Of a stretch of DNA of 64,000 nucleotides, positions 2,446 through 44,381 are shown piece by piece (positions within the stretch are counted from its first letter, which is position 1; each line of letters begins with the position of its first letter). Below the pieces are notes generated by a model that worked only from the letters and a program-made list of their open reading frames with translations, was not told the origin of the DNA and made no database searches. This DNA is from an uncultured bacterium (GTDB lineage: Bacteria; Babelota; Babeliae; Babelales; Babelaceae). Location: the NCBI GenBank assembly GCA_963819815.1, contig CAWFXL010000001.1, positions 416,001-480,000 on the forward strand. The letters run 5' to 3'. Both the position numbers and the translations under genes were made by a program.

Positions 2446-5400
2446 ATGAAACTTAGGAATTATCTTTTTCTGTGTATTTTTTCTGGCGAAATGCTTGAAG
2501 GTGCAAGCGCGATAAAAAAATCTATAGCAATTATAGAAACTACTCTTTGCGCAAGGAGTGCTGAAGGAACAATGCTTCTGCTAGATCCTTCTTGGATTCA
2601 AGAATCGAATTATGTCGCAAACCTTGTCCGCGAGAATCCTGCGCTGGGGAGCGACAACATGCCCTTAATGATGCCCTTGAGTTTTGCGCAGCTTGAGGAG
2701 CTTAATGCTTACGTGATCAGCATTAAAGAAGGCAATACAAAACAATTCAAAAAAAAGCTTATGAATAGTATCTCAGGTAGCGATCGCACCATAACCTTTA
2801 TGCATTCAAAGGTTCGAGAATTGCATGAACTTTTCAAAGCAACAAAACAGATGGAACTTAAAAAGCTCCAACCGTTAGTGCTTGCAGCTTTTCTCTTTCT
2901 CCTAAAAACGGATGCTGTTTTAAACGCTTTTGCAGTGAATCCGCTGCTTGTGAAAGAGCTCGACCTACCATCTGAAGTAGGACAATCTTTAGTTAAACTA
3001 GTATCTGATGAAGATCAAGAATTTTTGCGAGCACAGCTTTGCATTACTTACACGTGCCAAAGGCAACCAACCTGCGCGTCTCTGAGTGAAGACGGCACGC
3101 TTGCATGCGTAGCAGGGCCCTATAAAACCAATACGAGTTTTATCGAAGTTTTTAACACGATGGATGGTGAACCAGTAAGTAATAGGGTGGTTGATTACAA
3201 AATAAAAGGAATCGAATTTTGCCATGGTAACCAGCTTATTTCGTGGGGCAAAACAACGATCGATCTCTGGGACACCTTTACTCATACAAAAAATACCCCT
3301 GATGGCTGGGAAGAGCTTTTAAAAGAAACGAAAAAAATCTGGGGAATCGCACTAAGCAAGAATAAAAAGAACCTCGCGGTAGTACTTGATGATAAAGTCC
3401 TTGTGCTCGCCATTCCACGAGCTCATTCAGATGAATCTTCGGAAGAAAAGTCTGATGATTCTTCTGAGGAAATTAAACCCAAAATACTTATAGCACCAGC
3501 GATGCATAGAAGAGAGAATAAAAAAAATAGTTATTCACGCGTTATTTTTGGAAATGATGATCAAACACTCATCGAAATTCGACCAGGTGGCGATCTTATT
3601 TTTTACCGATGGGAAAAGGAGAAAGTGATAGCATTTAAAAAAGGTTCTGGTACTGAGGTCGCTCGCTTCTATACCAATGGGTCAAAAGTTATTATTATCA
3701 CACAGGCACATGAAGTCCGCGTCTGGGACTGCCAACAAGAAGCAGTTGAACCACAAAATGAAGGTAAATTACCCAACACCGCACGTGATTATGTTTCAAA
3801 TGACCAGTTTATAGAGTTTGAAAAGCATCACACAAAGGTTTTTTGTGACACAGGTAGTACTGAGTTTATGGATAAACTCGTGTTCCTTACAGGTTCAGTA
3901 GTACCTGCTTCAATAATCGTACATGGTGGAGTACCAGGGCTACAACAAAATGATAGAAGCGATGAAAAACTTCAGATGTTAGCACTACCGCCTCACCTGA
4001 CCTTGCAAGGAGCCTGCGCAAGCCCTCAAGGAAAAGTGTTTCTGGGAATAACCACTCAAGGACTCGTCAAAGTGTGGCATGTTAATAATCCTGCCATAAC
4101 AGCCTTTCTTTCGTCTAGTATGCCTCTTGCGCACGCGCTTTTCATTCAATATCTCGCCAACTCATATAAAATTCCGTCGACTCATCGCAGTGATTTTTTA
4201 AAGGCGGATCATCTGAGAATAATTTTTGAGAAATGCGAAACCACGTTTCAGAAACTTATTTCAACTATGATTCAGAGACAACTGAGCGGGATAGAAGATA
4301 TCGTTCCTCAATCACCACGAGGCCAAAAACATGATATACAATACGCATCAAGTTCAGCAAGTACCAGCGATACTGTCCCCAAAGCTTCATTACTTTCTCG
4401 CATAAAACTTGCAAGAAGTTCTTCATCACCCGCAGCAAATACTTCCCCTCAATCCTCCCCACAACACTCTCCGCGTAGCGCAAAACAAGCCATTATTGCG
4501 GCCTTAAAACTTCCACAAATATCCTCAATACGAAACGACGGAGATTCACCTAGAAGAAGAGCATCACATGACGCAACATCAGCTCTTACACCTCGTGGAG
4601 CACAACTTCTAAAAAGAACCCAAAGTCAATTGCGAGGATCATTACGTCTTGAGATCGGGGAAAAAGAATCCTCAAGCAAAATGCACTTAGGATCACCGCG
4701 CGAGCCACTCTCAGAACGGGGTGCTCAATCTTCACCAAGTTCTGACATGAAAACTTCTGAATCTAGCGTCCCGGAATCACTCACTCCGCAGGAAGTATCC
4801 GCAAGTACTATCGTACAAGCCGTCGCTCTTGAACCTTCACTACTACCACGAGGATCTTCCCAGACATCTACCTTGAGAAAAGAAACTGTTCAGGTCTCCG
4901 TGCAAAATTCTCCAAATGTAGCACCTCAAGTTATGGACGTTAATCCTAAATCGGACGAATCAGATAGTAGTCAATACCACAATGCTGTAGAAGTAAGCAT
5001 ATGGTCAACGACGACGCTTGATGCTTATTCTTCCGCACGAGCGCTCTTCAATAGTGGCTCCTTTGAAAGATCCTACACTTGTTTCTTAGATATTTATAAA
5101 AAAAAATCTGGTAGCAAACTTTATAAGGCATTATCGGCTCATTTTCTGGGCGAGATGACTTTAAGAGGGCGCGGCACTTTGATTAATCCTCCTTTAGCGT
5201 TTACATACTTTGAAAAAGCGGTAAAACAGGATGTTGACAAAGCTCTTCAAGGAGAAAGCTTTGCACGCCTTGGCGAAATGTACTATTACGGGTATGGTGT
5301 TAAGCATTCATTAATGAATGCTTTGTATAACCTAGGTCAACTCGTTACCCAAAAGGCTGCTTCATTACCCGGTGCGGGTTCAGAAGTCACCCAGACAGTA

Positions 5401-6237
5401 TATACTAGCAATGAGGAAGCGCCGTTTAGAAGTAGAATTTCTGCACACTTTCATGTATACCGCGCAAAGTCTAGGGAGTTGAACATGCCGGTTAAGAGCC
5501 TCTGTGACGAAGCGCTCAGGCTCTGCGACGAAGCCATCGCCGCCAAAAGCTCAGACGCTTCATTCGCATGGCTCTATAAAGGGAGACTGCTCATTGCTCA
5601 AGCCAAAGTAACTGACTCGTATGAAAATTCTAATAAGGCATGGCGTTGCCTTTTGAAAGCAGCAGAATCTACCGATGAGTCGATCAAAACGGAAGCGCTC
5701 TATCGCCTTGGTAAATTATCGGTAGCACACTTTAAATCTTCTACACAGGCTAAAGAATATTTTGAAAAAGTCCTCAAATCAAATGAAACTACATGGATAA
5801 GAGCGGCAGCCGAGCTACAGCTAGGCAATCTCGCACATTTTGAAGCAGCAACCAATAAAACCACTTCTTATGCAGCAGCAATTGCTCACTACAAAGAAGC
5901 GATTGAGCAACCTTATAATTTATGGGCTCAAGCTGAAGCGGCTTACCAGATGGCTCGCATTTATGAGCGCTTAGAAGATCAACCTAAGGCTTGGGAGCAA
6001 GTGTTTTTCTATGATAATATGGCAATAGCGGTGGGCGAAGTACTGGGAATACACCATGTCGATGCTCATTTTTCGCTTGCTCGACAATATTTTCGCGGTA
6101 CCCCGGATCTTCCTGTAGACCTTCATGAAGCGTATAAACATTTTATGACAGTGATCCATGAAAGCCACAATCCATCTCAGCTTGAAGAGGCACACAATAG
6201 GGTAAAAGTGCTTATGAAGCAAGCTTCAACGAAATAA
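2446..6237 (+). CDS. Large secreted protein: Skp1/BTB-like N-terminus, divergent beta-propeller, Ser/Pro/Arg-rich linker, Sel1/TPR C-terminus
   Basis: Start reassigned to ATG 2446 by alignment with paralog 35172-39869 (MKLRNYLFLCI vs MSLRHYFFLCI); WD-like IDLWD/VRVWD/VKVWH; Sel1 motif LGEMYYYGYGV. Confidence 0.85.
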   Translation: MKLRNYLFLCIFSGEMLEGASAIKKSIAIIETTLCARSAEGTMLLLDPSWIQESNYVANLVRENPALGSDNMPLMMPLSFAQLEELNAYVISIKEGNTKQFKKKLMNSISGSDRTITFMHSKVRELHELFKATKQMELKKLQPLVLAAFLFLLKTDAVLNAFAVNPLLVKELDLPSEVGQSLVKLVSDEDQEFLRAQLCITYTCQRQPTCASLSEDGTLACVAGPYKTNTSFIEVFNTMDGEPVSNRVVDYKIKGIEFCHGNQLISWGKTTIDLWDTFTHTKNTPDGWEELLKETKKIWGIALSKNKKNLAVVLDDKVLVLAIPRAHSDESSEEKSDDSSEEIKPKILIAPAMHRRENKKNSYSRVIFGNDDQTLIEIRPGGDLIFYRWEKEKVIAFKKGSGTEVARFYTNGSKVIIITQAHEVRVWDCQQEAVEPQNEGKLPNTARDYVSNDQFIEFEKHHTKVFCDTGSTEFMDKLVFLTGSVVPASIIVHGGVPGLQQNDRSDEKLQMLALPPHLTLQGACASPQGKVFLGITTQGLVKVWHVNNPAITAFLSSSMPLAHALFIQYLANSYKIPSTHRSDFLKADHLRIIFEKCETTFQKLISTMIQRQLSGIEDIVPQSPRGQKHDIQYASSSASTSDTVPKASLLSRIKLARSSSSPAANTSPQSSPQHSPRSAKQAIIAALKLPQISSIRNDGDSPRRRASHDATSALTPRGAQLLKRTQSQLRGSLRLEIGEKESSSKMHLGSPREPLSERGAQSSPSSDMKTSESSVPESLTPQEVSASTIVQAVALEPSLLPRGSSQTSTLRKETVQVSVQNSPNVAPQVMDVNPKSDESDSSQYHNAVEVSIWSTTTLDAYSSARALFNSGSFERSYTCFLDIYKKKSGSKLYKALSAHFLGEMTLRGRGTLINPPLAFTYFEKAVKQDVDKALQGESFARLGEMYYYGYGVKHSLMNALYNLGQLVTQKAASLPGAGSEVTQTVYTSNEEAPFRSRISAHFHVYRAKSRELNMPVKSLCDEALRLCDEAIAAKSSDASFAWLYKGRLLIAQAKVTDSYENSNKAWRCLLKAAESTDESIKTEALYRLGKLSVAHFKSSTQAKEYFEKVLKSNETTWIRAAAELQLGNLAHFEAATNKTTSYAAAIAHYKEAIEQPYNLWAQAEAAYQMARIYERLEDQPKAWEQVFFYDNMAIAVGEVLGIHHVDAHFSLARQYFRGTPDLPVDLHEAYKHFMTVIHESHNPSQLEEAHNRVKVLMKQASTK

Positions 6238-6429
6238 ATGCTTAGGGAGGAACGGAAAACCAAAACTTACATGAACCTCTCTAACGCAAGGGAAACTACG
6301 AAGATGAAATACACAAGATTATCGGCTTGACTACGCCAGGAAATCGCAACGTTTTACTTTTTTTAAGATGATAGTATAGTAAAAACGTAAAATTATTTTA
6401 ACTTTGAATAAGACACGAGTAGCGTTATT

Positions 6430-15925: not shown

Positions 15926-17659
15926 ATGAAAAAAAGCATATTTTTTATTGGCATTCTTATAGGAAGCATATCCTGTGAAGCTATGGATGTTGTCAGCGTA
16001 CCTGATGCCAGTTCAAAGACCGTTACTCTTCTGGCGGGTACCCATCAAGACCCTATAAAGATATCAGTTCGTCACGCAAAACAACTTATAGGAATATGTG
16101 ATCTACTTACGTACTCTGATTCAGAAGAAGATATCCCTGTTCCCGTTGTCGCTAAAAATATACTTGAAGCGATTTGTGCGCAGCTTGAGCGCATTGCTCT
16201 GTATGGGGAAGGGCGGGATAAAAAACTGATTGACGCGATATATGATGATTTTAAGAAGCTCGATGATGATACCCTTATCGAAGTGTTACGAGCGGCTGAT
16301 TATTTAAATGTCGTTATCTTATTGAATGCTGCATTCTCTATTGCCAAAGAACGCTCACTCGAAAAAGCTTCACTTGAAAACCTTTCATCTTTACATATTC
16401 GTATTTCGAGACTTCTACTTGAGTATAGGATAGCTGCCATGCTTGGCGTTACTCACGAGCGAGGGAATTATTATTCTCAACAAGATCTAAGTAAGGTACC
16501 TGTGGTAACTCCATTAACTACCTACAATTGTCGTACTGGCGGAATTGAATGTGTTGCCGTCACGCATGACGATAAGATCATTTTTGGTTCTGATGGTATG
16601 GTACGGATTGTAGATAGGGCTGGCACGGAACTTGCCGCGTGGCGCCTTGAGGAACAGGTTACGGTCATATGTGTAACTCCTGATAATAAAATAGTTACTG
16701 GTTCATCCAATGGAATAATCCGAATCTGGGATATGGCTGGTAATCAGCTTGCGCAATGTGAAGGACACCAGCAGCATATCAAGTCGCTTTTTATTACTCC
16801 TGACCTTAAGATAGTTTCTAGTGCAGGTGATTATACGGTGCGCATCTGGGACATGTTTGGTAGAGAAATCGCCGTATGTGCTAATTCTTTTATTGCAGCT
16901 TTAACATCAGATAATAAAATTGTTACTGGTGAAATGTTGACCGGAACGATGAGGATCTTTGATATATCTGGTAACCAACTTGCACAATGGCAGGGACATC
17001 AAGATCAAATTTGGTCGTTGACCGTTACAAATGATAATAAGATAGTTTCAGGCTCTAAAGATACAACAATATGTGTATGGGACACTTCTGGTAACCGACT
17101 TGCAGAGTGTAAAGGTCATGAAGGTGGAGTTACAACATTATTCGTGACAGCAGATCATAAGATTGTTTCCGGTTCTGAAGATACAACTGTACGTATTTGG
17201 GATAGTACTGGTAACCAACTTGCTGTATGCAAAGGTCATGAAAGTCCTGTCACTGCAGTGCAAGCAACGTCCGAGGGGCGAATAGTATCCAGTTCATCCG
17301 ATTTTTCAGTACGAATCTGGGATATTAAAGGCAAACAGATAGGGCTCTGTAGAGGGCATACTGAAGCAGTTCAGAAACTATGCCTAGCCGCTGATGATTC
17401 TATCATCTCTGCCTCATATGATAGAACTTTGATCATTTGGGATATGCAGAAAGTTTTGTTGCTTTTACAGATTGCATCAATTACTCATGACCAAGCCACC
17501 GCTATCTGGGCTTTGCTGCAAAAATGGGCTTCCCCTGATGCGGATAAACAGAGCTATGTGAATATGATAGTAGAAGTTATTACTGGCAAGCAACATAGCG
17601 AGTTTCAGCCAGAAGCACAAGAAAGTTCAACGACTTGTTCAACATCCTCCATTCACTAG
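15926..17659 (+). CDS. Secreted Skp1/BTB-like plus WD40 repeat protein
   Basis: Signal peptide ending CEA-M; IPVPVVAKNILEAI and LIEVLRAADYLNV (Skp1-like); about 8 GH...IWD repeats. Confidence 0.92.
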   Translation: MKKSIFFIGILIGSISCEAMDVVSVPDASSKTVTLLAGTHQDPIKISVRHAKQLIGICDLLTYSDSEEDIPVPVVAKNILEAICAQLERIALYGEGRDKKLIDAIYDDFKKLDDDTLIEVLRAADYLNVVILLNAAFSIAKERSLEKASLENLSSLHIRISRLLLEYRIAAMLGVTHERGNYYSQQDLSKVPVVTPLTTYNCRTGGIECVAVTHDDKIIFGSDGMVRIVDRAGTELAAWRLEEQVTVICVTPDNKIVTGSSNGIIRIWDMAGNQLAQCEGHQQHIKSLFITPDLKIVSSAGDYTVRIWDMFGREIAVCANSFIAALTSDNKIVTGEMLTGTMRIFDISGNQLAQWQGHQDQIWSLTVTNDNKIVSGSKDTTICVWDTSGNRLAECKGHEGGVTTLFVTADHKIVSGSEDTTVRIWDSTGNQLAVCKGHESPVTAVQATSEGRIVSSSSDFSVRIWDIKGKQIGLCRGHTEAVQKLCLAADDSIISASYDRTLIIWDMQKVLLLLQIASITHDQATAIWALLQKWASPDADKQSYVNMIVEVITGKQHSEFQPEAQESSTTCSTSSIH

Positions 17660-27769: not shown

Positions 27770-28609
27770 ATGAAAAAAATTCTTATAGCAGTCATCATGG
27801 GGAGTTTTATGGGGATGGGAACACTCTCCGCAAGCCATGGGGTGTCTTTCCGAACTGATTTTACCAAATTAATGGGCTCACCCAAAAATGACCCTGTACT
27901 TGAGCTTATTTCTCAAGACAATGTCCTATTTAAAGTCGATAAGAGCCTTCTTACCTCTTCACCCGCTATTCCTATGATTGTGCAGATGCTTGAGGGAGTA
28001 TTACCTGAAGGTCCTATCCCCCTTCATTTTGAGGGACAAACAATTTCTGAATTCCTGACCCTTATTGCAACGAGCAAGTATAGTAGCCCAAACCTTACAA
28101 TTGAGCAGCTTGTAGACATCATGCGTCTTGAAGATTATGTTGAGGCAGAGGACGTCCTTTACGGTAAGACACTGTATGACCTGGTGGCAAAGCTTACGAA
28201 AATTGATGATCTGAATGTAGTTTTTGCAAACGGTAGGTTTCGATCTCGCGCTGAAAAAATGGTGGGAGCTCTGCTTGCGAAAAAAATAAGTGAAAAAGAG
28301 ACCAAATGGACAAGTGATGATCTAAAAACTTTGTTCCAGCTTCCATTGGTGCCTCATGAAGTTAAAATAGCTTTCATTACAGCGCTCATTAAAGATGACT
28401 ATTTTCTTCTTGCTCAGATCTTATTAGATCCAGCAGATCGGCTCGCTGCAATAAGAAGCTCCTTGAAAGAGCATGAGTATGCTTCCGTGAGAGATACTCT
28501 ACTTAAGAATTATCCAAGATTAACTGAAGAGAATAATGTTTCTGATTTGAGAAAGAATGTATATGAAGCTATCAAAGATGCTTTAGACATAAATCTACCA
28601 GGAAGATGA
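27770..28609 (+). CDS. Secreted Skp1/BTB-like protein
   Basis: Signal peptide; LELISQDNVLFKVD, PIPLHFEGQTI, LVDIMRLEDYV; paralogous layout to 43470-44381. Confidence 0.8.
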   Translation: MKKILIAVIMGSFMGMGTLSASHGVSFRTDFTKLMGSPKNDPVLELISQDNVLFKVDKSLLTSSPAIPMIVQMLEGVLPEGPIPLHFEGQTISEFLTLIATSKYSSPNLTIEQLVDIMRLEDYVEAEDVLYGKTLYDLVAKLTKIDDLNVVFANGRFRSRAEKMVGALLAKKISEKETKWTSDDLKTLFQLPLVPHEVKIAFITALIKDDYFLLAQILLDPADRLAAIRSSLKEHEYASVRDTLLKNYPRLTEENNVSDLRKNVYEAIKDALDINLPGR

Positions 28610-30360: not shown

Positions 30361-32298
30361 CTATTCAACTTTACTCTTTTGAGATGGTTTTCCAGAATTT
30401 GGTTCATCATCGTCTTCATCATCACGATCTTCCACTGCTGTACTAGAGACTACAGAGCCGTCATTTCTTTGAGTTTCCTCAGGGTAAATAAGAGCTCTCA
30501 GCTTGTCCCAGCAGTTTTGGAAGGCTTCATTCGCAGCCTTTTTCGGGCTAGACAGCATAAAAATGTCATCCTGGATAGTATCTAAAACGGAAAAAACCAA
30601 ACCTTCCCAAGCTATACGTAAGAACGCACGAGAACTCGATGAGGACATTTGTTGCTCCTGAAGTTGATATTCAGACTGCAAAAATTTCCAGATAGTTGGT
30701 ACATCCTCGATATGTATACGCTTAATCATTTCCAGTACACCGAGATCACGCACCCGAACGGTATTATTAAAATCACCGATAACAATCTGGTCATCAGGTT
30801 TCATGCAGAGTGCACTAACACCACTTTCATGTATCTGAGACTCGGCAAGCTCTTCACCATTCTTACTCCAAACTCGAATTACTCCTTCCTTACTCGATGC
30901 GGTAATGATTTTTCCATCTGCAGTTACACAGATTGACGGTATAGTTCTACTCCTTGTGAACATCGGTTCCATGTTTTTATGCGCCTTAAAAACTATGAGC
31001 TCTTTTCCTAACGCATCCTGCACACGAGTATTTCCATCCCAAGACAAAGAAACAATCTCACCACTTGGTGTTGCAGAGACTGACAAAAAGCTACCAGTAA
31101 CGACCCGGTTCATACTAGAGCCGAGAAATATGCTACTCATAGAAACTCCTCTTTCCCTCTCGAATGGCAATGCCTGCAGGTTACCTACCGTATCCAAGAT
31201 GTGTGAGGTTCCATCGAAAGACCCAGTAAGTATAGTACCGTCTGGCATCACAAAGACTGAGCAAGGGAAATGTAGAGCACAGGTAGAGATTTTCCTGCAT
31301 TGCCTATCGTAGATATCAATTCCTCCTAGGTGTGCAGAAACTATCTTACCATCCAAAGTCACTTTGAGGGAAAATACTTCTTCTCGTGCGCCCTCTGTTG
31401 GAGTGTGGATTGCAAGCTGTGTACCTATAGTATTCCAGATACAAATTGTTCCATCACTATAGCCAGCAACAATGTCGCAGTCTGCTGTCATACACAGAGA
31501 GCTCACAAAAGTTTTACCGTTCGACTTACATACAGCAAACTCTTTTCCTTCAGGACTGTACATATGGATATTCCCACTTGCAAGCCCAACGGCTATGGTA
31601 CCATCAGGTCCCGCAGCAAGGCAGGTAATTTCACTTTGTGTTTTACACAAAACATGCTTTCCTAAAACCCGAAGAATATAGTTCTCTAAAAGAGCAGCTC
31701 TTAGTCGATTAGGAATTGCAGCTATCAGCTCAGCGGTAAATGCCTGTACACCCATGTCCATTACACAAGTTTGCGCTAGTTCAGGGACAAAGGGAATATC
31801 TAAATATTCGGCTGCTAAAAGTATGGCAACGACAGTATCTCCCTCAAGTTGCTCGAGCTCTTTTCTTATTTCTTCTTTGACCGTCTCGCTATCAGATCTC
31901 AACTGAGCAATCTTTTGGAGTGTCCTTGCATTTTCTCTCACTGGATCTATTTTAGATGATTGCGTCAGCTCATCTACTAAAAGTTCATTTTGAGTAATCT
32001 TTTCAACCCGCCCAAGCTGTTTTATAAGGAACTTTCCAATGCTGAAGTGAACTTGAGGTACATCTATAACGATATGATTCTCCTCGAGAAGCCATAAAAT
32101 ACCGCGTAACAACTTGGCATGTTGTAGAGAAACTTCAAAAGAGCTTTCTTCTTGTAAGTTTTCTTCTTTTCCCATTATAAGTTTGATCGTCTGTTCATTG
32201 CTTTCTATCGATTGCACAGTGCTCTCTACTGCAAGATTCATCGGTAGTGCCGTAAAGAACCATGACAAGGTCATGAGAAGAACTTTATTAGTATTCAT
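30361..32298 (-). CDS. Secreted Skp1/BTB-like plus WD40 repeat protein
   Basis: Start reassigned to MNTNKVLL (AAGG RBS); FEVSLQHAKLL, VAILLAAEYLDIP; divergent WD40 repeats; acidic/basic tail; paralog of 15926-17659. Confidence 0.88.
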   Translation of the reverse strand: MNTNKVLLMTLSWFFTALPMNLAVESTVQSIESNEQTIKLIMGKEENLQEESSFEVSLQHAKLLRGILWLLEENHIVIDVPQVHFSIGKFLIKQLGRVEKITQNELLVDELTQSSKIDPVRENARTLQKIAQLRSDSETVKEEIRKELEQLEGDTVVAILLAAEYLDIPFVPELAQTCVMDMGVQAFTAELIAAIPNRLRAALLENYILRVLGKHVLCKTQSEITCLAAGPDGTIAVGLASGNIHMYSPEGKEFAVCKSNGKTFVSSLCMTADCDIVAGYSDGTICIWNTIGTQLAIHTPTEGAREEVFSLKVTLDGKIVSAHLGGIDIYDRQCRKISTCALHFPCSVFVMPDGTILTGSFDGTSHILDTVGNLQALPFERERGVSMSSIFLGSSMNRVVTGSFLSVSATPSGEIVSLSWDGNTRVQDALGKELIVFKAHKNMEPMFTRSRTIPSICVTADGKIITASSKEGVIRVWSKNGEELAESQIHESGVSALCMKPDDQIVIGDFNNTVRVRDLGVLEMIKRIHIEDVPTIWKFLQSEYQLQEQQMSSSSSRAFLRIAWEGLVFSVLDTIQDDIFMLSSPKKAANEAFQNCWDKLRALIYPEETQRNDGSVVSSTAVEDRDDEDDDEPNSGKPSQKSKVE

Positions 32299-32526
32299 AT
32301 TATTTCGTACCTTTCTGCTATTGAGATAATCGACTTCCTTGGAGTCAAGTATTTCAACGTTAGATGAATAAGCTTTTTTAGACCTTTGCGCAAGCTTCAT
32401 TGAGATGAAGATCATATGATTCGTGGCTGAAGTTAAGCTTCATAATGCTGTATCGCTTCTGATTTGGCAACCTGCCTAGAAAATCAATAGTATGTATTAT
32501 ACTTCACGTTGTAGCTTTTTCTCCGG

Positions 32527-35171: not shown

Positions 35172-38100
35172 TCACACTGTTTTCTGTACTTTAAGCTTGA
35201 GATTCGCCTCCTCAATCTGCGAGGGGTTAAGGCTTTCTTGAGCGACAATCTTGAAGTGTTTAAATGCTTCTAGAAGATCTATTTCAATGGCTGGCGTGCC
35301 TTCATAATGCTGTCGTGCCAGCGAAAAATGAGCATCTATATGAGGAATGCCTAACACTTCGCCTATTGCAACTGCTTTTGCATCATATTCATGCACCTTT
35401 TCCCATTTCTTTCTCAGGAGCTGAGCTTTATCTTCAAGGACCTCCAACTTCTTTTGAGGAATGTTTTCATCCGATAGCTCATAGATACGTGCTATGTGGT
35501 AAGCGGCTTCAGATTGAACCCGTAAATTATATGGCTGATTAAGCGCTCTTTCATAACACGTAAGAGCTTGCAATGAGAGTATTTTTTTACTTGGAGATTC
35601 ACGAAATGCGATATGGCCAAGATAAAGCTCAGCCGCTGGACATATCCAGGAATTAGTGTTGGTGGCTCGTGCTTTTTTTAAATATTCTTTCGCTTGAGCA
35701 AGCGAGTCGACAGAGCTTGTATAGTGTAATTTCCCGAGCCTATAATAAGCTTCAGCTTTAAGTAGTTCATTTGAAGAGCGAGTAGCTTTTGAAAGAGCTA
35801 TTTCAAAACAGCTCATTGCCTTGGAGACCTTTTCTCTTGCAAGCAGGAAGCGACCTCGATAAAGCCAGGCTTGTGCACAATCTTGACTGGATGTTTCACA
35901 GGTATCTTCGCAAAGTCTCATGGCCTGTTCATAGAGGCTTACTACTGGTTCTGCTGTACTGTCTATTTTAAGGTCTTTACATTGAGCTCGATGCAAGAGA
36001 AACAGTGCGGCAATTCTACTTCTGAAACTAGCTTCCCCATCTATTTGGTTAACTTCTTCATCGTCTATATTGCTCACAATGAGATTTTGCTGATGAGCAA
36101 TAACCTGATTTAGATAGTATAGTGCATTCATCTGCGATTGTTTTACACCATATCCGTAAAAGTACATCTCACCTAACCGAGCACAAGCATAAGCCTGAAC
36201 AGCTTTGTCGACATCCTGTTTACTCGATATTTCAAAGAATTTGCAAGCCATTGCCGGATTCCACTCTACACCTCTCCCTAGGAAACACATTTCTCCTAAT
36301 ACGTGTGCTGCTAGAGCTTTATAGATTTTGGTTTCAGACAATTTGTATAAACCCTGAAAGTTTCGATATGCCTCCTCATACTTACCTTGCATATAAAAAC
36401 TAGCTGCTGATTTATACAATGTATGGGCGATATGCTCTCCTGTTTGAGTAAGCTTTAGAGAGCTTTTCCAAGTATTTTCAGGAGAAGTCTCAATACCGGT
36501 TTGATCTAATTTTCCTGCAAGAGCTTTCTGAGAAATCACATCAAATGGGCAAGAGGCTGCTTCTACCTCACGTGAACGATCCTTGCTAGCCGATGAATTT
36601 TTTACTGTAGATTCAGACGAGGTACTTGTATCTTCAGATGAGGTACTTGTAGAGGCAAGGGGACTTTCAGCTCGTGGGGTCACTAAGACTATTTCAGATG
36701 CATCATGTTCGGTCACTCTTGGAGTATCTAATTCATCTTGAACAACAAATTCTACTATCTGAGAACCGGAGCTGCTCTGTTGACCACTTGATAAATGCTC
36801 ATCCTGAGAAATTCCTGTGTCGGCATGAGAATGAGAGGTCTGTGTTGTTATGCTCACGCTTGGAGATTCCGACCCCTGAGACATACGGTCATTAGGTAGT
36901 GAAATACTTAACTCTGGGGATGGCTCTTGTTGAGCAACAGGTTGCGCCTGATCTCCTGAATGCTCATTCTGAGCAATTCCTGTGTCGGTACGAGGATGAG
37001 ACGTCTGTGTTCTGCTCACGGCTGGAGATTCCGTCTCCTGAGACACACGGTCATTAGGTAGTGGAATACTTAACTCTGGGGATGGTTCTTGTTGAGCAAC
37101 AGGTTGCGCTTGATCTCCTGAATGCTCATCCTGAGCAATTCCTACATCGGCCCGAGAATGAGAGGTCTGTGTTGTGCTCACGGCTGGAGATTCCGTCTCC
37201 TGAGACATACGGTCATTAGGTAGTGGAATACTTAACTCTGTGGATGGCTCTTGTTGAGCAACACGTTGCGCTTGATCTCCTGAATGCTCATCCTGAGCAA
37301 TTCCTACGTCGGCCCGAGAATGAGAGGTCTGTGTTGTGCTCACGGCTGGAGATTCCGTCTCCTGAGACATATCCTTATCGGGCAACGCAATACTTAACTC
37401 TGTGGATGGCTCTTGTTTACGGACACGAGGAGACGCTGTACGCCTAGTGCCTCTTGGTGATGAGTAAGTCTCTTGCAAAACGCTCGTTTCAACGTGTGTA
37501 CCAGAAGCACCTAACACTCGTCTTTTTGGAGATATCATTCTCTCCTGAGGCATACTAAGTAGCTCACTTTGCGACGGCTCTTGTTTACGGACACGTGGAG
37601 ATGCTATACGCCTAGTGCCTCTAGGTGATGCGTAAGTCTCTTGAGAGACGCCACTTGCGGCTTGCGCACCAGAAGTAGCAACCACTCTTCTTTTTGGAGA
37701 TTTCATCCGGTCTTGGAGCATACTAGGTAGCTCACTTTGTGGCGGCTCTTGTCTTTGCGAACGTGGAGACGCTGTTTGCAGAGTACTTCTCGGTGATGAG
37801 TGCTTCTCGTAAGAGATGCCAGTTATAACTTGTGCACCAGAGGTATGAGACCTTCTTCTCCTTGGAGAGCTAACTGAAGAATCGTATGATACCACGCTTG
37901 TTTCAGGTCGATCAGATGTGGTGATTCTTCTATGATCAGACGAAGCACTTCGTACAAGTTTATCTGTGCTCTGCACGGGAGTTGTAGACTCAGATGTGCT
38001 ACGTGTCCGAACGTTTAGATGTGGGGAGAATGGTCGGTTATCTTCCCAGGCTTTTCTAAAATCTGGAAATGCTGCAAACATAAGCTCCCGAAATGTTTCA

Positions 38101-39869
38101 TTGCACTCCTCAAAAATTCTACGAAGGTGATATGCCGTAGCCAGTTCACCTAGATCGGGATTCTCCTGTCTAAGCCGATTAATGAGGTACTGGATGCATA
38201 GAGCTTGCTCAAGAGGCATGCTTGATGAAATAAAATCTGATACTTCTTGATTGCCCATATGCCATACTTTTATCAAGCCATCAGGGCCGGTGCCCAGAAA
38301 AGCTGCTCCCTGACTACTTAAATAGGCTCCCTGCAACGCGAGTGAAGGGGGTAACGGTAACTTTTGGTAACTTTCACCTCGAACATCAGAGCGTGCCATT
38401 CCAGGGGCACCGCCATCAACAACTATTGCTGAACTCATTTTTCTCGTTGGCAGGAAAGCAAGGTTATCTATAAACTCATTACTAGAAGTATCACAAAAAA
38501 TCTTTACCGTACCCTTTTTAAGCTCGGTAAGCTGTTCATGAGGAATAATATCATAGGACAACACAGGAATATTGCCCTCGGTAATAGGTTCTACGGTATC
38601 TTGTTGGCAGTTCCAGACCCGTATTTCGTGGGTATCTGAAATAGTAACAAACTTTGAACCATTTGTGTAAAAGCCTCGATAGCCTGCTCCTGAATTCTTT
38701 TTATATGCTATAAACTTCTCTTTCTCCCATTCGTAAAACAGAAGATCCCCTCCAGGGCGTACTTCAATGATCAACTGATCATCATTTCCAAAAACAATGG
38801 TTGAATGATTGTTTTTCTTGTTATCCCTTTTATATGCTGGAGGAGCTAAGACTGTTTTCGTCTCTATTTGCGACGCTTCGGATTGACCTTTTCGAATGCT
38901 CAGTACGATGATTTTTTCGTCAAGTACCAATGCTAAATGTCTTCGGTCAGTACTGAGAGCTGTTCCCCAAATTCTTTTACTATCTTTATAGAGGTCTTTC
39001 CATGCAGGCGGAGTCGTATTGGAAAGACCAAATGAATCCCAAAGGTCGACACGTTTTTTCCCCCAGGTTATGATTCGGTTACCATCACAGAAGTGGACCC
39101 CTTTTATTTTGTAATCGAGCACTACATAGTATACTGAGTCACCACTTTTAAGATCAAAAACCTCAATAAAGCTGGTATCCTTTTTTTGAAGACCTGCAAT
39201 AACCACATGATGGCTATCGGGACTTACAGAACAGTATAGGAGCGGTTTGTCATTTTTTAGGGTGACACATAATTGGGCCCTTAAAAACTCTTGATCTTCG
39301 TCTTCTAGAAGCTTTACAGGAGATTGGGTAAGCTCAGGAGGCAACTCAAGCTCTGAAACCAGCCGTGCATTCGATACAAACGCGGCAAGTGAAGTTTCTT
39401 TTTTCAAGAGAAATAAAAATCCTGCAAGAGCAATAGGTTTCAACTTTTCAAGCCGCATGATCCGTATAAGGCTAAAGAGCTCACTCAATTCCTTAACTTT
39501 AACAGGAAGCGCTGCTGCACTGCGGTCGCCTTCTGAAATTTTGCTCATGAGACTTTTTTTAAGTTTTCCGTTTTTCCGTTTTTCGTTTTTAAGTTGAAGA
39601 AGGTAATCATTTAACATCTCGAGTTGATCACTGTTTAAAGGGACCTTAATAGGCATATCTTCTGTGGTTCCTAGTGCTGCATTTTGCTGTAACAGTGCTC
39701 CTATGTACTGTGACTCCTGAGCCCAGATAGCATCAAGCTGAAATGGCTTATCATCTGCGCTTACCGCAAAAAGATTGGTGTTTGTCGTACAAAGATCTTG
39801 TATCGCGACCGCTCCCTGTAAGGTTGCTCCAAAAGAAATGCATAGAAAAAAATAATGCCGCAAACTCAT
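35172..39869 (-). CDS. Large secreted Skp1/BTB-like, propeller, tandem-repeat linker, Sel1/TPR protein; paralog of 2446-6237
   Basis: AAGGAG RBS; shared blocks with 2446-6237 (DEDQEFLRAQLC, FGNDDQ..IE.RPGGDL, RLGEMY.YGYGVK, DAHFSLARQ). Confidence 0.9.
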   Translation of the reverse strand: MSLRHYFFLCISFGATLQGAVAIQDLCTTNTNLFAVSADDKPFQLDAIWAQESQYIGALLQQNAALGTTEDMPIKVPLNSDQLEMLNDYLLQLKNEKRKNGKLKKSLMSKISEGDRSAAALPVKVKELSELFSLIRIMRLEKLKPIALAGFLFLLKKETSLAAFVSNARLVSELELPPELTQSPVKLLEDEDQEFLRAQLCVTLKNDKPLLYCSVSPDSHHVVIAGLQKKDTSFIEVFDLKSGDSVYYVVLDYKIKGVHFCDGNRIITWGKKRVDLWDSFGLSNTTPPAWKDLYKDSKRIWGTALSTDRRHLALVLDEKIIVLSIRKGQSEASQIETKTVLAPPAYKRDNKKNNHSTIVFGNDDQLIIEVRPGGDLLFYEWEKEKFIAYKKNSGAGYRGFYTNGSKFVTISDTHEIRVWNCQQDTVEPITEGNIPVLSYDIIPHEQLTELKKGTVKIFCDTSSNEFIDNLAFLPTRKMSSAIVVDGGAPGMARSDVRGESYQKLPLPPSLALQGAYLSSQGAAFLGTGPDGLIKVWHMGNQEVSDFISSSMPLEQALCIQYLINRLRQENPDLGELATAYHLRRIFEECNETFRELMFAAFPDFRKAWEDNRPFSPHLNVRTRSTSESTTPVQSTDKLVRSASSDHRRITTSDRPETSVVSYDSSVSSPRRRRSHTSGAQVITGISYEKHSSPRSTLQTASPRSQRQEPPQSELPSMLQDRMKSPKRRVVATSGAQAASGVSQETYASPRGTRRIASPRVRKQEPSQSELLSMPQERMISPKRRVLGASGTHVETSVLQETYSSPRGTRRTASPRVRKQEPSTELSIALPDKDMSQETESPAVSTTQTSHSRADVGIAQDEHSGDQAQRVAQQEPSTELSIPLPNDRMSQETESPAVSTTQTSHSRADVGIAQDEHSGDQAQPVAQQEPSPELSIPLPNDRVSQETESPAVSRTQTSHPRTDTGIAQNEHSGDQAQPVAQQEPSPELSISLPNDRMSQGSESPSVSITTQTSHSHADTGISQDEHLSSGQQSSSGSQIVEFVVQDELDTPRVTEHDASEIVLVTPRAESPLASTSTSSEDTSTSSESTVKNSSASKDRSREVEAASCPFDVISQKALAGKLDQTGIETSPENTWKSSLKLTQTGEHIAHTLYKSAASFYMQGKYEEAYRNFQGLYKLSETKIYKALAAHVLGEMCFLGRGVEWNPAMACKFFEISSKQDVDKAVQAYACARLGEMYFYGYGVKQSQMNALYYLNQVIAHQQNLIVSNIDDEEVNQIDGEASFRSRIAALFLLHRAQCKDLKIDSTAEPVVSLYEQAMRLCEDTCETSSQDCAQAWLYRGRFLLAREKVSKAMSCFEIALSKATRSSNELLKAEAYYRLGKLHYTSSVDSLAQAKEYLKKARATNTNSWICPAAELYLGHIAFRESPSKKILSLQALTCYERALNQPYNLRVQSEAAYHIARIYELSDENIPQKKLEVLEDKAQLLRKKWEKVHEYDAKAVAIGEVLGIPHIDAHFSLARQHYEGTPAIEIDLLEAFKHFKIVAQESLNPSQIEEANLKLKVQKTV
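36790..37416. repeat. Intragenic tandem repeat, about 4 x 162 bp (54 aa)
   Basis: Anchor tcttgt recurs at 36925, 37087, 37249, 37411; unit QEPS.ELSI.LPNDR.SQETESPAVS.TQTSH. Confidence 0.92.
37411..37870. repeat. Intragenic tandem repeat, about 3 x 168 bp (56 aa), SPR-rich
   Basis: Anchor recurs at 37411, 37579, 37747; unit SPKRR...SQETY.SPRGTRR.ASPRVRKQEP. Confidence 0.85.
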
Positions 39870-40049
39870 AGAAGGCTCCTTTACGTTACTGAGGAAATAA
39901 CCTAACTGCTACAGTATCAAGGAATTTGCAAGGCATCAAATTTTAGTCTACTAGCAAAAAGAAATCTCTTTCAGCACACTGCAACAAAACTGCCACTGTA
40001 TTGAGGGCTAGAGCAATCGAAACTGGGATGTTTTGAGCTCCATGACGAT

Positions 40050-40461: not shown

Positions 40462-43086
40462 TTATGCGTCTTTCATTCTTTTATGACCTTGAGGAGAAGA
40501 TACCTGAGTATGCTCTTTAAGAGTCTTGTAACGCTCCAAGCAACGATTGAAAGCCTCATCTATCCCTTGTGTGACAAGAGCCTTAATTTTGTTTTTCCAT
40601 TCAGCAGAAGCTATATAGAGGCCCAAATCCTCATCTTCTATCTGTGGTCTCCATAAAGACGATATCGATCTGAGTAAATCAGGAAGAAGCGCATCACCTA
40701 TCGTTGTGCAGAGAAATTCAATAGCATGAGGCTTTATTGAAGTGAGCAGAAGTGTAATTTCATAAGGGAGTAAGTCGGCTTTATTCCGCACGTAGATAAG
40801 AGAAAATAACGCATCGAGATGCTCTGTATTCAATATGCTCAAAAACAGATGTATCAAATGATCTCTTAGATGGGGTGTATGACTAAAAATCTCATCAATA
40901 CAGAGCACGGGTATCTCTATTGATCTGAAAAGTTTTGTGATATACATGACATGCTTGTAAGCTGCTCTTTGCTGTATGCAACTTTGCTTGCAAAATCGGT
41001 AAGAACGAAACGCGATATATTCGAGATTTTCCGGGATATCATATATTTCTTCTCTTTCAATCGCTCCTTCAAGAGTTACGATAATCATGTTTCTAAGTCC
41101 TCTTGCTCCTGCAAAAGAGGGTTCTGCTCCTGCTTCTAAAAGGCAACCAATGCTCTCAGTTCTGCCTACGTTAGCCGCTTCTTCGAGTTCCGTCCCCATC
41201 TTGATGGTTCGGGATGAATTACCTCTACTCCCGCCGGTCCATAAAGTTCTTAATATTCTACTGGGCCTTACCCCGTGCTTAAGAAGCTGGGCTATACAAT
41301 GGTCACACCATACTGCAGTTCCTAACAAGCTGCGGTCGTCCTCATCCGAGAAAACAGAAGCTCCCGCCTTAAGTAACCGATCTACAAGGTCGCATAATCC
41401 TCCATCTAGTGCTCTAGAAAGGGGTGAACGAACCAAAGGCGAGAATCGCTCGACATAGGCTCCATGCTCAACAAGGAGATTCGCAAGCTCCACATGATTG
41501 GAATTGGGGTCATATAATAGCCCACTTAATATTGAGTCCTGGACCCCCTCGAATACCAATACGGCGCTTGGATTTGCTCCCGCAAGAATAAGCTTTTTAG
41601 CTGCATCGATGGGGGCACCTCTCTCTTTAAAAGCTCTTAAAACCGCATCAAGCAAGGCCTCTTCATCCGGATATGCTCCTGAATTGAGAAGCAGATCGAA
41701 GCATTCTTCATGTCTATTTGCTAAGGCAGCTGCAAGAGGAGTATATGACGGCGGACTTTGATCGCTTGGAATTGAGGCTCGGGGAAGATATTCGTTCGGA
41801 TTCGCTCCAACTTCTAATAATCGTTTTACTATTCCCACATGACCCGCTTTGCTTGCTTCATAAAGTGCTCTTGTAAGAAAGAAATCTTGGGGTCTTCTCA
41901 CCAGAGACAAAAATATTTCTAACCATTCGCCATCACCATTTTTTACCATGCCTTCCCATAATTCTGGTACGATACAGCGAATACCTAAGGCAAGAAGTCG
42001 TCGAAATAGTACTTTATCATTAGTTTGTATTACGAAGTGTAACCATCTTTGAAGGTCTGGAGTATTGTGGGATATGAGTCCCTGAGCCGCCAGTAACTCA
42101 ACTAACTCAATATTATGGTCGGCAATCGCATAATCCCAGGTCCTAACACCCCGGACTATCGCGCAACATTCAAGCCATAGGAGTGCGCGTTCATTATCAC
42201 CTTGTTGTTGATAATATTCCATGTAAGTATGCATACGTTTAAGGAGCGTGGGATCTCTATCTACATGGCGCGACAAGAGATATTTCGCACAGTGAGGCTT
42301 TTCCAAATAAATAGCGAGATTCACGGGCTTATTTCCCAAATACACGTCAGACGGAGCATCCAAAAATACTTCCGGAACGATTTCTCCGAGCATAGAGTCG
42401 TCGTCGTTTTGAAGGGCATCGAGAACTTTGAGTTCCATAGGTGCGGCCTGATAACAACGGACCCAACTAAACGCTTCTTGATAGTCTTCTTTTTGCCAAG
42501 ATTCTTGTGCATATATCTTAATTTTTGCCTCGAAGGAAGGCATTCTTTTCGCTCCATGAGATAAGAGCGTCTTGACACAGCGAACGCTCTTGAACAAAAG
42601 CGCAAGCTCCAGGGGTGTTTGCCCAAGATACGTTTCAAGTCGAGTATCAAGTTGCTCCTTGGGGATAGTATTTTCAAGCTCTGCATGAGCGTCATTTTCA
42701 AGCGCATTAAGGATCTTAAGTTCTCTTTCAGTCGCGGAACGACAAAGAGCCCACAAGATAGCCTGGTCTGGTTGTCGTTCCGCCAAGCAATGCTGCATAT
42801 GAGCTAGTATTTCTTGATCGGTAGAGGGATTTTTTAATGCACCACGCTTTATGAGCGATCTTACACAGTGCGGACTGCGTAAAAAAAGAGAAAACTCCAG
42901 AGGTGTTTTTCCCATGAGTAGCTCGAATCGAGTATTTACATAATAATCAGGAACAAGTCGGCTCAGTTCACTGGGGTTATCATTTTCGATAGCTCGCATA
43001 ACGCTCGCGGAAACTACAGCCATATGCAAAGGATAGATCCAGAAGGAAGACAAAGTAAATATCGCTATAAGGAAGATTTTTTTCAT
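40462..43086 (-). CDS. Secreted ankyrin repeat protein with F-box-like C-terminal domain and NLS-like tail
   Basis: Start reassigned to MKKIFLIAIF (GGAG RBS); ankyrin repeats; LFRSIEIPVLCIDEIF; ends HKRMKDA. Confidence 0.9.
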   Translation of the reverse strand: MKKIFLIAIFTLSSFWIYPLHMAVVSASVMRAIENDNPSELSRLVPDYYVNTRFELLMGKTPLEFSLFLRSPHCVRSLIKRGALKNPSTDQEILAHMQHCLAERQPDQAILWALCRSATERELKILNALENDAHAELENTIPKEQLDTRLETYLGQTPLELALLFKSVRCVKTLLSHGAKRMPSFEAKIKIYAQESWQKEDYQEAFSWVRCYQAAPMELKVLDALQNDDDSMLGEIVPEVFLDAPSDVYLGNKPVNLAIYLEKPHCAKYLLSRHVDRDPTLLKRMHTYMEYYQQQGDNERALLWLECCAIVRGVRTWDYAIADHNIELVELLAAQGLISHNTPDLQRWLHFVIQTNDKVLFRRLLALGIRCIVPELWEGMVKNGDGEWLEIFLSLVRRPQDFFLTRALYEASKAGHVGIVKRLLEVGANPNEYLPRASIPSDQSPPSYTPLAAALANRHEECFDLLLNSGAYPDEEALLDAVLRAFKERGAPIDAAKKLILAGANPSAVLVFEGVQDSILSGLLYDPNSNHVELANLLVEHGAYVERFSPLVRSPLSRALDGGLCDLVDRLLKAGASVFSDEDDRSLLGTAVWCDHCIAQLLKHGVRPSRILRTLWTGGSRGNSSRTIKMGTELEEAANVGRTESIGCLLEAGAEPSFAGARGLRNMIIVTLEGAIEREEIYDIPENLEYIAFRSYRFCKQSCIQQRAAYKHVMYITKLFRSIEIPVLCIDEIFSHTPHLRDHLIHLFLSILNTEHLDALFSLIYVRNKADLLPYEITLLLTSIKPHAIEFLCTTIGDALLPDLLRSISSLWRPQIEDEDLGLYIASAEWKNKIKALVTQGIDEAFNRCLERYKTLKEHTQVSSPQGHKRMKDA

Positions 43087-43273
43087 ATCAGATCTCCGTC
43101 TTACCATGATTACTTTTTGCTTGGATAAGTTCTTTCCAAGTATAGGCAAGTTCCGCTATAGAGCAAACATTGTAAGTATAGGAGCAAAAAAATTATTTCC
43201 GGTAGTTGGCAAAACAAAAGCTTCCGGGTTTAGGCATAATTGAATTGTCAAAGATTCTCACACCGGAAAAAAG

Positions 43274-43337
43274 AGGGACTGGCGTAGCCTGGGACGCTGA
43301 CAAACAACATTGTCAAGCAGAGCAACTATCAGTCCCT
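43274..43337 (-). terminator. Extended hairpin with U-tract downstream of 43470-44381
   Basis: agggactg...cagtccct outer stem, inner tgacaa/ttgtca stem, then CTTTTTT on the minus strand. Confidence 0.55.
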
Positions 43338-43469
43338 TGTGTTTTTAGAAAATGATTGTCCAACTCTGTAAATTGCCTTCGTGTCTTATATATATTCTTA
43401 TTTTTTTCTATTTTTGGAATTCATGTAACACATTCTCAAGCAACTTTTTCTTCGTTTTCTTCGTTATGG

Positions 43470-44381
43470 TCAAATTAAACACTCGTCAGAATCTGATTCG
43501 TCCTCATAATTTTTTAAGGGAAATCCTTCCTCAATCATAATCCTGAGAGTCCCAGGTATAAATGGTTTAAAGTATTGTACTAATCTCGCTACCAAATCCT
43601 TATATTCTTGAGGAGCAAGTAATGCTTTTATAATCTCAACTCGATTCTCATCTTCAGGCGTCAGGAGAATAGTATAGACCACCACATCCCTCCTTGGAGC
43701 GAGAGATGGAACTCTATCTAAGACACCTCTAGCTGATATCCCCATCTTAATGGGCAGTGTTACACTACTCTTAATAAGACATTCTATTAAATTAAGTAGT
43801 ATTTGATGTTCCATGCGAGGAAGTTTACTGAATGCTGTCAGGATATCTGTGGTCCAAGAATGCTTCGAGGCAATACTCTTAAAACACTCGTCTCCTATTA
43901 TTACAGATTGTAGATCTGGCAGTGTAAAGTTTTTTGCAATTTCTTCCCTGATAGACTTCTCAAGAAGAGGGTTTCCTAAAGTATTTTGTAAGTCATTAAG
44001 GTTCCAGGGTATCTTCTTCCCAAGTAACCGTAAAGAAGGCGTACGAAGTGAGTTAAGGTCTAAATAATCACTTGCTCGCAGCAACTGAAGAGCTTCCTCA
44101 TGTGTAATAGTGGTATCGAGGGTACCCGTCTTAAGGAACTCGATAACTCTTGCAAGAGTCTGCGAATTAATCTCAGGAAGATCAACGGGAGCCTCTTGCG
44201 GGGTGTATGTCAGTACATTCTTAATAGTACCTGCATCCTTAAAAAGGTCTTTAGGAGCCTCGATCGTTACGTTATCGCTGGTAACAAATTTGATTATTTT
44301 GTCCGATTGCTGAATGACTGCTTGGCTTGCGCAAAGACCGGTCATGAAACTGGTGGTAATAACAATGAAAAATTTCGTCAT
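43470..44381 (-). CDS. Secreted Skp1-like protein
   Basis: AAGGA RBS; signal peptide; IKFVTSDNVTIEA...TIKNVL...PVDLPEINSQTLARVIEF...LLRASDYLDL follows the Skp1 POZ pattern. Confidence 0.88.
   Translation of the reverse strand: MTKFFIVITTSFMTGLCASQAVIQQSDKIIKFVTSDNVTIEAPKDLFKDAGTIKNVLTYTPQEAPVDLPEINSQTLARVIEFLKTGTLDTTITHEEALQLLRASDYLDLNSLRTPSLRLLGKKIPWNLNDLQNTLGNPLLEKSIREEIAKNFTLPDLQSVIIGDECFKSIASKHSWTTDILTAFSKLPRMEHQILLNLIECLIKSSVTLPIKMGISARGVLDRVPSLAPRRDVVVYTILLTPEDENRVEIIKALLAPQEYKDLVARLVQYFKPFIPGTLRIMIEEGFPLKNYEDESDSDECLI

Follow-up and report, generated by a model that had tools for sequence, protein, structure and literature searches.

Can an intracellular bacterium carry its own version of the eukaryotic adaptor Skp1 and export it already joined to a receptor domain? 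The question is raised by six genes in a 64,000-nucleotide stretch of DNA (hereafter the window; C1:416001-480000, C1 being the contig) from the 1.64-Mb, two-contig genome of a member of Candidatus Babeliales (phylum Dependentiae, also TM6), intracellular parasites of protists; a chlamydial origin, which the gene content might suggest, was rejected. An original prediction, made from the sequence alone, had described the products of these genes, here named by their window position (2446, 15926, 27770, 30361, 35172 and 43470), as secreted proteins that begin with a Skp1-like domain, continue with an F-box-like Leu-Pro (LP) helix and in four cases end in a beta-propeller. All six open reading frames (ORFs) are present in the window, and every peptide string quoted in support of the prediction occurs in their translations. 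We find a Skp1-derived head, preserved up to and including helix H7, in all three types of protein that these genes encode. The core of the prediction holds, in that an adaptor head derived from Skp1 and a receptor domain are joined in one chain, in proteins that an intracellular bacterium exports.

Considering their first 260 residues, the six proteins form three paralogue pairs by blastp: 2446/35172 (47% identity over 261 amino acids (aa), E 3.8e-74), 15926/30361 (E 1.7e-5) and 27770/43470 (E 3.7e-7; 1.1e-6 by phmmer). Two of the starts called for a closer look. The ATG start of 2446 is internal to a longer ORF that starts with TTG (2371), and the ATG form begins with a signal-peptide-like segment. 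For the ORF at 30361..32415 the likelier start is Met40 (nucleotide (nt) 32298), the shorter form again beginning with a signal-peptide-like segment. By a crude hydrophobicity rule, the predicted signal-peptide-like N-terminus is found in all six proteins.

The Pfam family Skp1_POZ (PF03931) was matched at or above its gathering score by one of the six proteins, 43470 (E 4.4e-7, 30.4 bits, with a cut-off of 21.9); 27770 (13.1 bits) and 35172 (11.3 bits) fell below it, and the Pfam scan returned no individual Skp1_POZ match for 2446, 15926 or 30361. When searched alone, 43470 reached solved Skp1 structures only at E 0.2-1, a two-sequence profile for 43470 matched the BTB domain of KLHL3 (1.2e-3) and Skp1 (4e-3), and the ESM Atlas gave only weak BTB/BACK leads for 43470 (0.85 at most). 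Family profiles support the identity of the head. A profile of three sequences of the 15926/30361 type from this genome (A6) matched solved Skp1 at E 1.3e-7, with Skp1 making up 33 of the 38 sequences listed at E ≤1. A 21-sequence family alignment of four window proteins and their relatives (A2) matched Skp1 at E 4.9e-22 and Elongin C at 1.6e-7, profile positions 26-173 falling on Skp1 3-153. Individual proteins are tied to this family as well: the head of 15926 matches genes of relatives (G035, G017, G015) that exceed the Skp1_POZ cut-off, 30361 matches a Skp1_POZ-positive relative (L014) at 5.5e-13 by phmmer, and the family hidden Markov model (HMM) gives 120.4 bits for 30361 and 76.4 bits for 27770, each of which is itself in that alignment. 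Heads and Skp1 have the motifs S-D-G..F-V, TIKN, PIPLP and A-x-[NDE]-YLDI in common, and the AlphaFold2 (AF2) model of 15926 has the same order of strands and helices as Skp1.

Membership of the BTB family was considered and rejected: 43470 scored 16.6 bits against BTB (PF00651), under the cut-off of 20.5, the A2 profile matched no BTB protein among solved structures, and a search of the genome gave no BTB match at E ≤0.01 (the controls gave none either).

The 2446/35172 pair required additional effort. The original prediction had considered its Skp1 call weakest here, and by sequence this is so: a profile of five 2446-type paralogues had its best match among solved structures at E 0.29, to an unrelated protein, Pfam on five 2446-type members gave nothing below E 0.028, and a 21-sequence profile run against solved structures was dominated by the first WD40 blade. 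Word-indexed homologue searches added little to the analysis: one found nothing but its own query in 1459 candidates, and another gave 3 proteins. A search of 1.84 billion representatives for the 2446 type yielded 25 relatives at E ≤0.001. The 2446-type profile enlarged by these relatives (A3) aligned with A2 at 97.5% probability in hhalign (E 5.7e-12, over 130 columns); the small 2446-type profile with the signal peptide removed reached 87.4% against the family. The fold agrees. An AF2 model of residues 1-250 of 2446, with a mean predicted local distance difference test (pLDDT) of 83.6, superposed on Skp1 (1fs1_B) with a Z of 12.5 and a root-mean-square deviation (rmsd) of 2.7 Å, 115 of 116 residues being aligned; model residues 32..174 lie on Skp1 2..140, and all 50 entries listed by VIA-align were Skp1 chains. 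With Foldseek, the fold comparison that had been proposed as a check on the prediction, ranks 1-35 (33 rows) were all Skp1 chains or entries whose names are those of assemblies with Skp1, and the first BTB protein, SPOP, came at rank 36. The structure of AnkB with human Skp1 (5k35) was among the fold matches, and the best viral structural neighbour of the head was a Pithovirus 'Skp1 family protein' (E 3.3e-5). The predicted Skp1-like N-terminal domain stands for all three pairs on profiles and on fold models of 2446 and 15926, with the Pfam cut-off passed by 43470 only.

The other element of the predicted adaptor, the F-box-like LP helix, did not stand. An LP or IP is present in five of the six window proteins (15926 reads SLH), and LP is invariant in 7/7 close WD40-bearing relatives (alignment A5: L160, P161), whose consensus is IA-x-LP-x-x-IR-x-x-I...LG with the first WD40 'GH' about 25 residues further on. 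The likeness to an F-box is this leading Leu-Pro, yet two residues alone are weak evidence. The six proteins matched no F-box, F-box-like or PRANC profile at E ≤1 (PF00646, PF12937, PF09372), nine LP segments of 60-65 residues matched no F-box-type profile at E ≤10, and seven C-terminal tails matched no F-box or PRANC profile. Genome-wide, F-box profiles gave nothing above cut-off and nothing at the six genes, and PRANC gave nothing, where HMMER's speed filters may conceal very weak F-box matches. The models also leave too little room, as 15926 has one helix of about 16 residues to connect its head to the linker of the propeller, and 2446 has two short helices (aa 176-180 and 188-198) after the head; a three-helix box of about 40-50 residues was seen in neither. 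In alignments of the 15926 model with Fbw7 and Cdc4, which start at aa 189-191, the helix at the LP position was never paired with their F-box or linker helices. Because the LP stretch has no profile match and is too short, it is not an F-box, and the F-box reading of LP helix and C-terminal tails alike is ruled out by profiles and by length.

On the models, the LP element instead sits at the place of Skp1's own last helix. In 2446 it begins where good superposition on Skp1 stops, at Skp1 residue 140, and superpositions that take in the last Skp1 helix worsen to about 5 Å rmsd. This last helix comprises residues 147-163 according to PMC13237083. The C-terminal, F-box-binding part of Skp1 (PF01466, H7-H8) had no match at the six genes, and its three matches in the genome at E ≤1 lie elsewhere and below cut-off.

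Behind the head, three types of payload are found: an eight-bladed WD40 propeller (15926, 30361), a propeller with a Sel1/TPR region (2446, 35172) and a private helical domain (27770, 43470). The four beta-propellers of the prediction are thus all there, with Pfam WD40 scores of 156.6 bits for 15926 and 57.5 bits for 30361; for 2446 and 35172 the evidence is weaker and consists of weak propeller-family matches, first-blade matches and modelled strands. The two propeller-less proteins each have their own conserved C-terminal helical region. In 35172, the spacer between propeller and Sel1 region contains adjoining tandem arrays (nt 36794-37845) of a 162-bp unit (3.8 copies, 90% matches) and a 168-bp unit (about 2.3 copies), which encode a Ser/Pro/Gln/Glu-rich, probably disordered segment.

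A complete protein was modelled for 15926 (pLDDT 85.0, predicted template modelling score (pTM) 0.76, with the signal peptide at low confidence). Its propeller is eight-bladed, with Z of about 42 to ODA16 and Rsa4 in VIA-align, and two F-box proteins that also have eight blades, Fbw7 (Z 37.9) and Cdc4 (Z 35), were among the entries. The C-terminal tail behind the propeller is kept across the family (Q-A-x-x-I-W-x-x-L-Q). In a complex prediction, the 15926 tail (aa 503-556) and head (aa 29-178) scored 0.76, a value reached by 116/157 solved complexes and 2/215 mismatched pairs, and the best of three controls scored 0.00; the runs agreed in at least 61% of contacts and the partner pLDDT was at least 74. 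The predicted contacts join aa 144-175 (the end of H6, H7 and the helix at the H8 position) with aa 506-552. Tail and head are pieces of one chain, and the score may reflect likeness to solved Skp1-F-box complexes, so that the model supports tail-head binding short of demonstrating it. On this prediction, the protein's own tail would cover the face that in Skp1 holds the F-box, and by folding onto H7 and the LP-position helix it would stiffen the junction between head and propeller.

We also assessed how widely the head occurs. HMMs built for this purpose found 13 head-bearing genes in this genome (8 of the A2 type and 5 of the 2446 type), 10 of them within C1:337-498 kb, and the hydrophobicity rule gives 12 of these products a signal-peptide-like N-terminus. 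In a sample of 101 genomes from the order, 15 had Skp1_POZ above cut-off, as did 45 of 261 Dependentiae genomes versus 0 of 14 control genomes; matches occur in 29/145 Dependentiae genera, often in tandem arrays, with up to 12 in one genome. Among 12 relatives scanned at E ≤1e-4, Skp1_POZ was found in 10 and WD40 in 7. In relatives of the 2446 type, the head is joined to propellers and to Sel1/TPR or ankyrin repeats; Skp1_POZ at E ≤0.01 was seen in none of the 20 that were scanned, and across the 101 genomes sampled from the order this type of head was found only here. The domain identities, the architecture and the spread of the family are thus shown, and the family is real and widespread in one phylum.

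Two further family members of this genome have unusual arrangements. First, L048 (C1:408981-410357, 458 aa), 5.6 kb upstream of the window, has a signal peptide and a head (Skp1_POZ weak, 17.2 bits), behind which lies a domain of the Peptidase_M48 family (35.3 bits, with a cut-off of 20.3) with the motif HELGH. Second, L050 (C1:663326-665614, 762 aa) has two successive heads (aa 72-166 and 186-301 by the family HMM) ahead of a WD40 propeller.

What these proteins do was considered from their architecture. We favour the reading that they are host-cullin-docking, one-chain substrate receptors, and think it about as apt to be right as wrong. A Sec-type signal peptide would export a protein whose head descends from eukaryotic Skp1. 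The head, which keeps the POZ sheet and the helices to H7 (Skp1 2-140) and has the last helix replaced by a short, often LP-initiated one, would bind a host cullin at its N-terminal domain in the manner of Skp1, and CUL1 is the most likely partner. The payload would then present host proteins to the host RING-E2 for ubiquitination, making each protein a substrate receptor complete in itself, able to do without host Skp1 and without an F-box, in the way of BTB-Kelch proteins on CUL3. As no cullin, U-box, BTB, ubiquitin or F-box family was detected in the genome (completeness 88%), the ligase partner would have to be the host's; and as the profile is of Skp1 type and not of BTB type, CUL1 would be expected rather than CUL3. 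Docking on a cullin is plausible.

Several observations weigh against this reading. The helix-5 motif of Skp1, NYLDIP, is strongly conserved in relatives (A5), but four of the window proteins read DYLNV, EYLDIP, DYLDL and DYVEA, and the motif is unrecognisable in 2446 and 35172 (KQMEL, RIMRL); its N and Y presumably lie in the CUL1 contact. The F-box of an SCF (Skp1-cullin-F-box) ligase also adds to the cullin contact, and there is no F-box here. In the 15926 model, the linker between head and propeller has a pLDDT below 50. The signal peptides are the norm in this genome, where the same rule marks 539/1259 ORFs of at least 150 aa (43%), and a Sec signal carries a protein across the inner membrane only, with no route into the host cytosol known. 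In L048, finally, the head is joined to an enzyme and not to a receptor, which misfits a simple role in substrate reception.

A broader version of the favoured reading is more tentative, and we consider it somewhat doubtful: an acquired Skp1 may have become a portable, Sec-exported 'cullin plug' carried by many payloads, with the F-box dispensable and the whole forming a diversifying receptor library. The payloads would be WD40 propellers, WD40 with Sel1, WD40 with ankyrin repeats, private helical domains and an M48 peptidase, and the LP-initiated helix together with the protein's own three-helix tail would fill the F-box site within one chain.

Among the alternatives, the one that survives best, though we consider it unlikely, has no link to ubiquitin at all: the acquired POZ fold would be no more than a general-purpose module for interaction or oligomerisation in proteins of the periplasm, the surface or vesicles. 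POZ folds do act as oligomerisation modules in other families, the members are Sec-signalled with no translocation system known, and the helix-5 motif has drifted in the window copies. The profile, however, is specifically that of Skp1 and not generic BTB, the fusion partners are interaction domains of eukaryotic type, and the neighbourhood is packed with signal-bearing ankyrin proteins, a type read as host effectors in this order.

That neighbourhood also bears on the next alternative. The window as a whole (1-64000) is an island of signal-bearing ankyrin-repeat and Sel1 proteins with almost no housekeeping genes (Table 1); NCBIfam matched some of them to Ank effectors of Legionella, but always far below cut-off and on account of the repeats only. 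A module of about 190 aa ends four of the ankyrin-repeat proteins and makes up a fifth copy as a stand-alone ORF, all five within 33 kb (C1:456-489 kb) around 43470, which is itself flanked by two carriers of the module, an ankyrin gene (40462-43149) on one side and an ORF (44786-45379) on the other. Its core reads L-[FL]-R..IP-x-L-x-[IV]-x-E-I-[FL]..FL. Directly next to 43470 lie two tandem, near-identical WD40 genes (45734-47149 and 47274-48815, both on the minus strand) without a Skp1-like head. In the product of each, a signal peptide leads into some 55 helical residues, the last of them KKLPLSFQELAGH, and these are followed by a WD40 propeller; such proteins might partner the propeller-less heads in trans. 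Two other genes stand out: 26282-27475 (+) encodes an MsrA-MsrB-like fusion of methionine sulfoxide reductases with a hydrophobic N-terminus (NCBIfam matches below curated cut-offs), and 13814-15259 (-), which encodes an ATPase_2 protein ('archaeal ATPase', PF01637, 55.6 bits), is alone here in resembling neither an exported protein nor one of eukaryotic type.

Table 1. Positions of the six Skp1-headed genes, their parts and the surrounding repeat genes (window numbering unless C1 is given).
Feature	Amino acids	Nucleotides	Strand	Remarks
Gene 2446		2446..6237	+	1263 aa
2446 signal-peptide-like segment	1-22
2446 Skp1-like head	32-174	2539-2967	+	AF2 model superposed on Skp1
2446 LP motif and next helix	172-198	2959-3039	+
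2446 beta-propeller	from ~201			THOC3-type propeller match aa 201-318
2446 rear				Ser/Pro-rich middle, then Sel1/TPR C-terminus; Sel1 match aa 896-929, 36.4 bits
Gene 15926		15926..17659	+	577 aa; signal peptide aa 1-19
15926 Skp1-like head	32-154	16019-16387	+	AF2 full-length model
15926 helix at H8/LP position	158-173	16397-16444	+	LP lost, reads SLH
15926 low-confidence linker	180-189
15926 eight-bladed WD40	191-509	16496-17452	+
15926 three-helix tail	507-553	17444-17584	+
Gene 27770		27770..28609	+	279 aa; signal peptide; without propeller
27770 Skp1-like head	from ~44	27899-28174 (approximate)	+
27770 helical C-terminal region	190-203	28337-28378	+	positions are those of a second LP motif
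Gene 30361		30361..32298 (ORF to 32415)	-	signal peptide
30361 Skp1-like head		31654-32190	-	31-aa insertion between POZ part and helix H5
30361 IP motif		31687-31722	-
30361 rear				WD40 propeller, then long acidic C-terminal tail
Gene 35172		35172..39869	-	1565 aa; signal peptide; paralogue of 2446
35172 Skp1-like head		about 39342-39782	-
35172 LP motif		39318-39350	-
35172 rear				propeller, tandem-repeat spacer, Sel1/TPR C-terminus (Sel1 42.2 bits)
Gene 43470		43470..44381	-	303 aa; signal peptide; without propeller
43470 Skp1_POZ	28-84	44130-44300	-	Skp1-like to ~aa 125 (nt 44007)
43470 helical C-terminal region	186-198	43788-43826	-	positions are those of an LP motif
Ankyrin/Sel1 genes, examples		6430-7407, 8220-9059, 10171-11382, 11792-13507, 19530-20663
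Ankyrin/Sel1 genes, further examples		23711-24565, 32527-34803, 49545-52247, 55318-57321
~190-aa module copy		40465-41094	-
~190-aa module copy		57531-58160	-
~190-aa module copy		59776-60480	-
~190-aa module copy		44786-45376	+
~190-aa module copy		C1:487994-488554

With these neighbours, two-chain mimicry of the chlorovirus kind was considered, in which at least the propeller-less heads (43470, 27770) would act as free Skp1 bridging the bacterium's own receptors to a host cullin, the receptors being either the neighbouring ankyrin proteins with the module or the WD40-only proteins. The clustering of both kinds of gene around 43470 suits this idea, and the stretch IP-x-L-x-[IV]-x-E-I-[FL] within the module core has the spacing of F-box helix 1. 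There is also a precedent, as the Skp1 of chlorovirus PBCV-1, A039L, binds viral ankyrin proteins by a C-terminal F-box-like motif according to the available text of PMC7019647. The module itself, however, has no Pfam family at E ≤10, no PRANC match, no solved F-box relative and no usable ESM Atlas match, and it is nearly confined to this genome (3/261 Dependentiae genomes, two of them weakly); we consider the two-chain arrangement improbable. We hold it equally improbable that the heads are decoys or inhibitors that bind host cullin or F-box proteins without productive ubiquitination and block the host SCF or bring payloads to its components. In favour of this, the Skp1 core is kept to H7 with helices that hold the F-box in Skp1, and the M48 peptidase fusion is easier to explain by an enzyme being brought to a partner of Skp1 than by the capture of substrates. 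Against it, the H7/H8-position face of 15926 is predicted to be covered by its own tail, leaving little room for a foreign F-box, and the large, diversifying payload set (WD40, Sel1, and ankyrin in relatives) resembles a receptor library.

Returning to the one-chain receptor that we favour, its parts can be compared with known systems. The heads resemble eukaryotic SKP1 (PF03931 and PF01466) in the POZ sheet, the helices through H7 and the signature motifs, and have a variable insertion where Skp1 has its acidic loop. They differ in that Skp1 is free and about 160 aa long, whereas the heads follow a signal peptide and run into WD40, Sel1 or helical domains, have no PF01466 match, have the last helix replaced and have no F-box partner detected in the genome. 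Giant viruses and PBCV-1 (A039L) likewise are protist parasites that encode their own Skp1, but theirs is free-standing and cytoplasmic, whereas the Babeliales heads are fused to receptors behind a signal peptide. Legionella AnkB-type effectors are also bacterial mimics of one SCF component; they supply an F-box and borrow host Skp1, whereas in the Babeliales proteins it is the Skp1 part that the bacterium brings, without an F-box.

In design, the closest likeness is to the BTB-Kelch and BTB-MATH adaptors of CUL3, which join a POZ-fold adaptor, a short helical connector and a propeller receptor in one chain. The available text of Canning 2013 (PMC3597819) calls BTB-Kelch proteins 'single chain analogs' of Skp1/beta-TrCP1, with the 3-box analogous to the F-box. 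The claim that adaptor and receptor are fused accordingly held as to the single chain, in four of the six proteins, and is in principle not unprecedented, such a layout being the rule among BTB adaptors of CUL3. The likeness is one of design and not of membership, as the heads are of Skp1 type, have no BACK domain and carry a WD40 and not a Kelch propeller.

Among bacteria, the available text of Domman et al. 2014 (PMC4209131) describes large, lineage-specific and tandemly expanding families of F-box and BTB-box effectors in Parachlamydiaceae, which, like the proteins studied here, join eukaryote-like, ubiquitination-related domains to repeats in obligate intracellular bacteria of amoebae. As given there, type III signals were tested and the payloads are leucine-rich repeats, in contrast to the Sec signals and WD40/Sel1 payloads of the Dependentiae heads, and in the available text Skp1 is mentioned only as a host partner. 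Within the order itself, the available text on the cultured relative Chromulinavorax destructans (PMC6561590) agrees with the frequent signals seen here and reports signal peptides in 44% of coding sequences and in 78% of ankyrin proteins, reads the latter as secreted effectors, describes only a Sec system and suggests outer-membrane vesicles as carriers. Full-text searches, with subscription journals outside their scope, found no paper linking Skp1 to Dependentiae or Rhabdochlamydia and no description of bacterial Skp1-like effectors; public tables already hold automatic PF03931 labels on such proteins.

Bacterial F-box effectors, F-box/BTB-box families, free giant-virus Skp1 and one-chain BTB adaptors are thus already known. 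Mimicry of cullin-RING ligases is known on the receptor side, from bacterial F-box effectors, chlamydial BTB-box proteins and the BTB-Kelch proteins of poxviruses. A bacterial Skp1 part fused to a receptor would, if true, be a third solution to the same problem. On the broader version of the reading, the proteins would be complete SCF substrate receptors outside the exchange controls of host Skp1 and F-box proteins, and would make up a receptor library that diversifies in a way no bacterium has been described to show. Being small and folded, the heads lend themselves to direct tests of binding to the cullins of candidate protist hosts, and the propellers, should the reading be true, could serve as baits for what these parasites destroy. 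For the little-studied Dependentiae, this would be the first concrete, testable mechanism of host manipulation: judging from the architecture of these proteins, the bacterium is probably able to plug into the protein-destruction machinery of its host.

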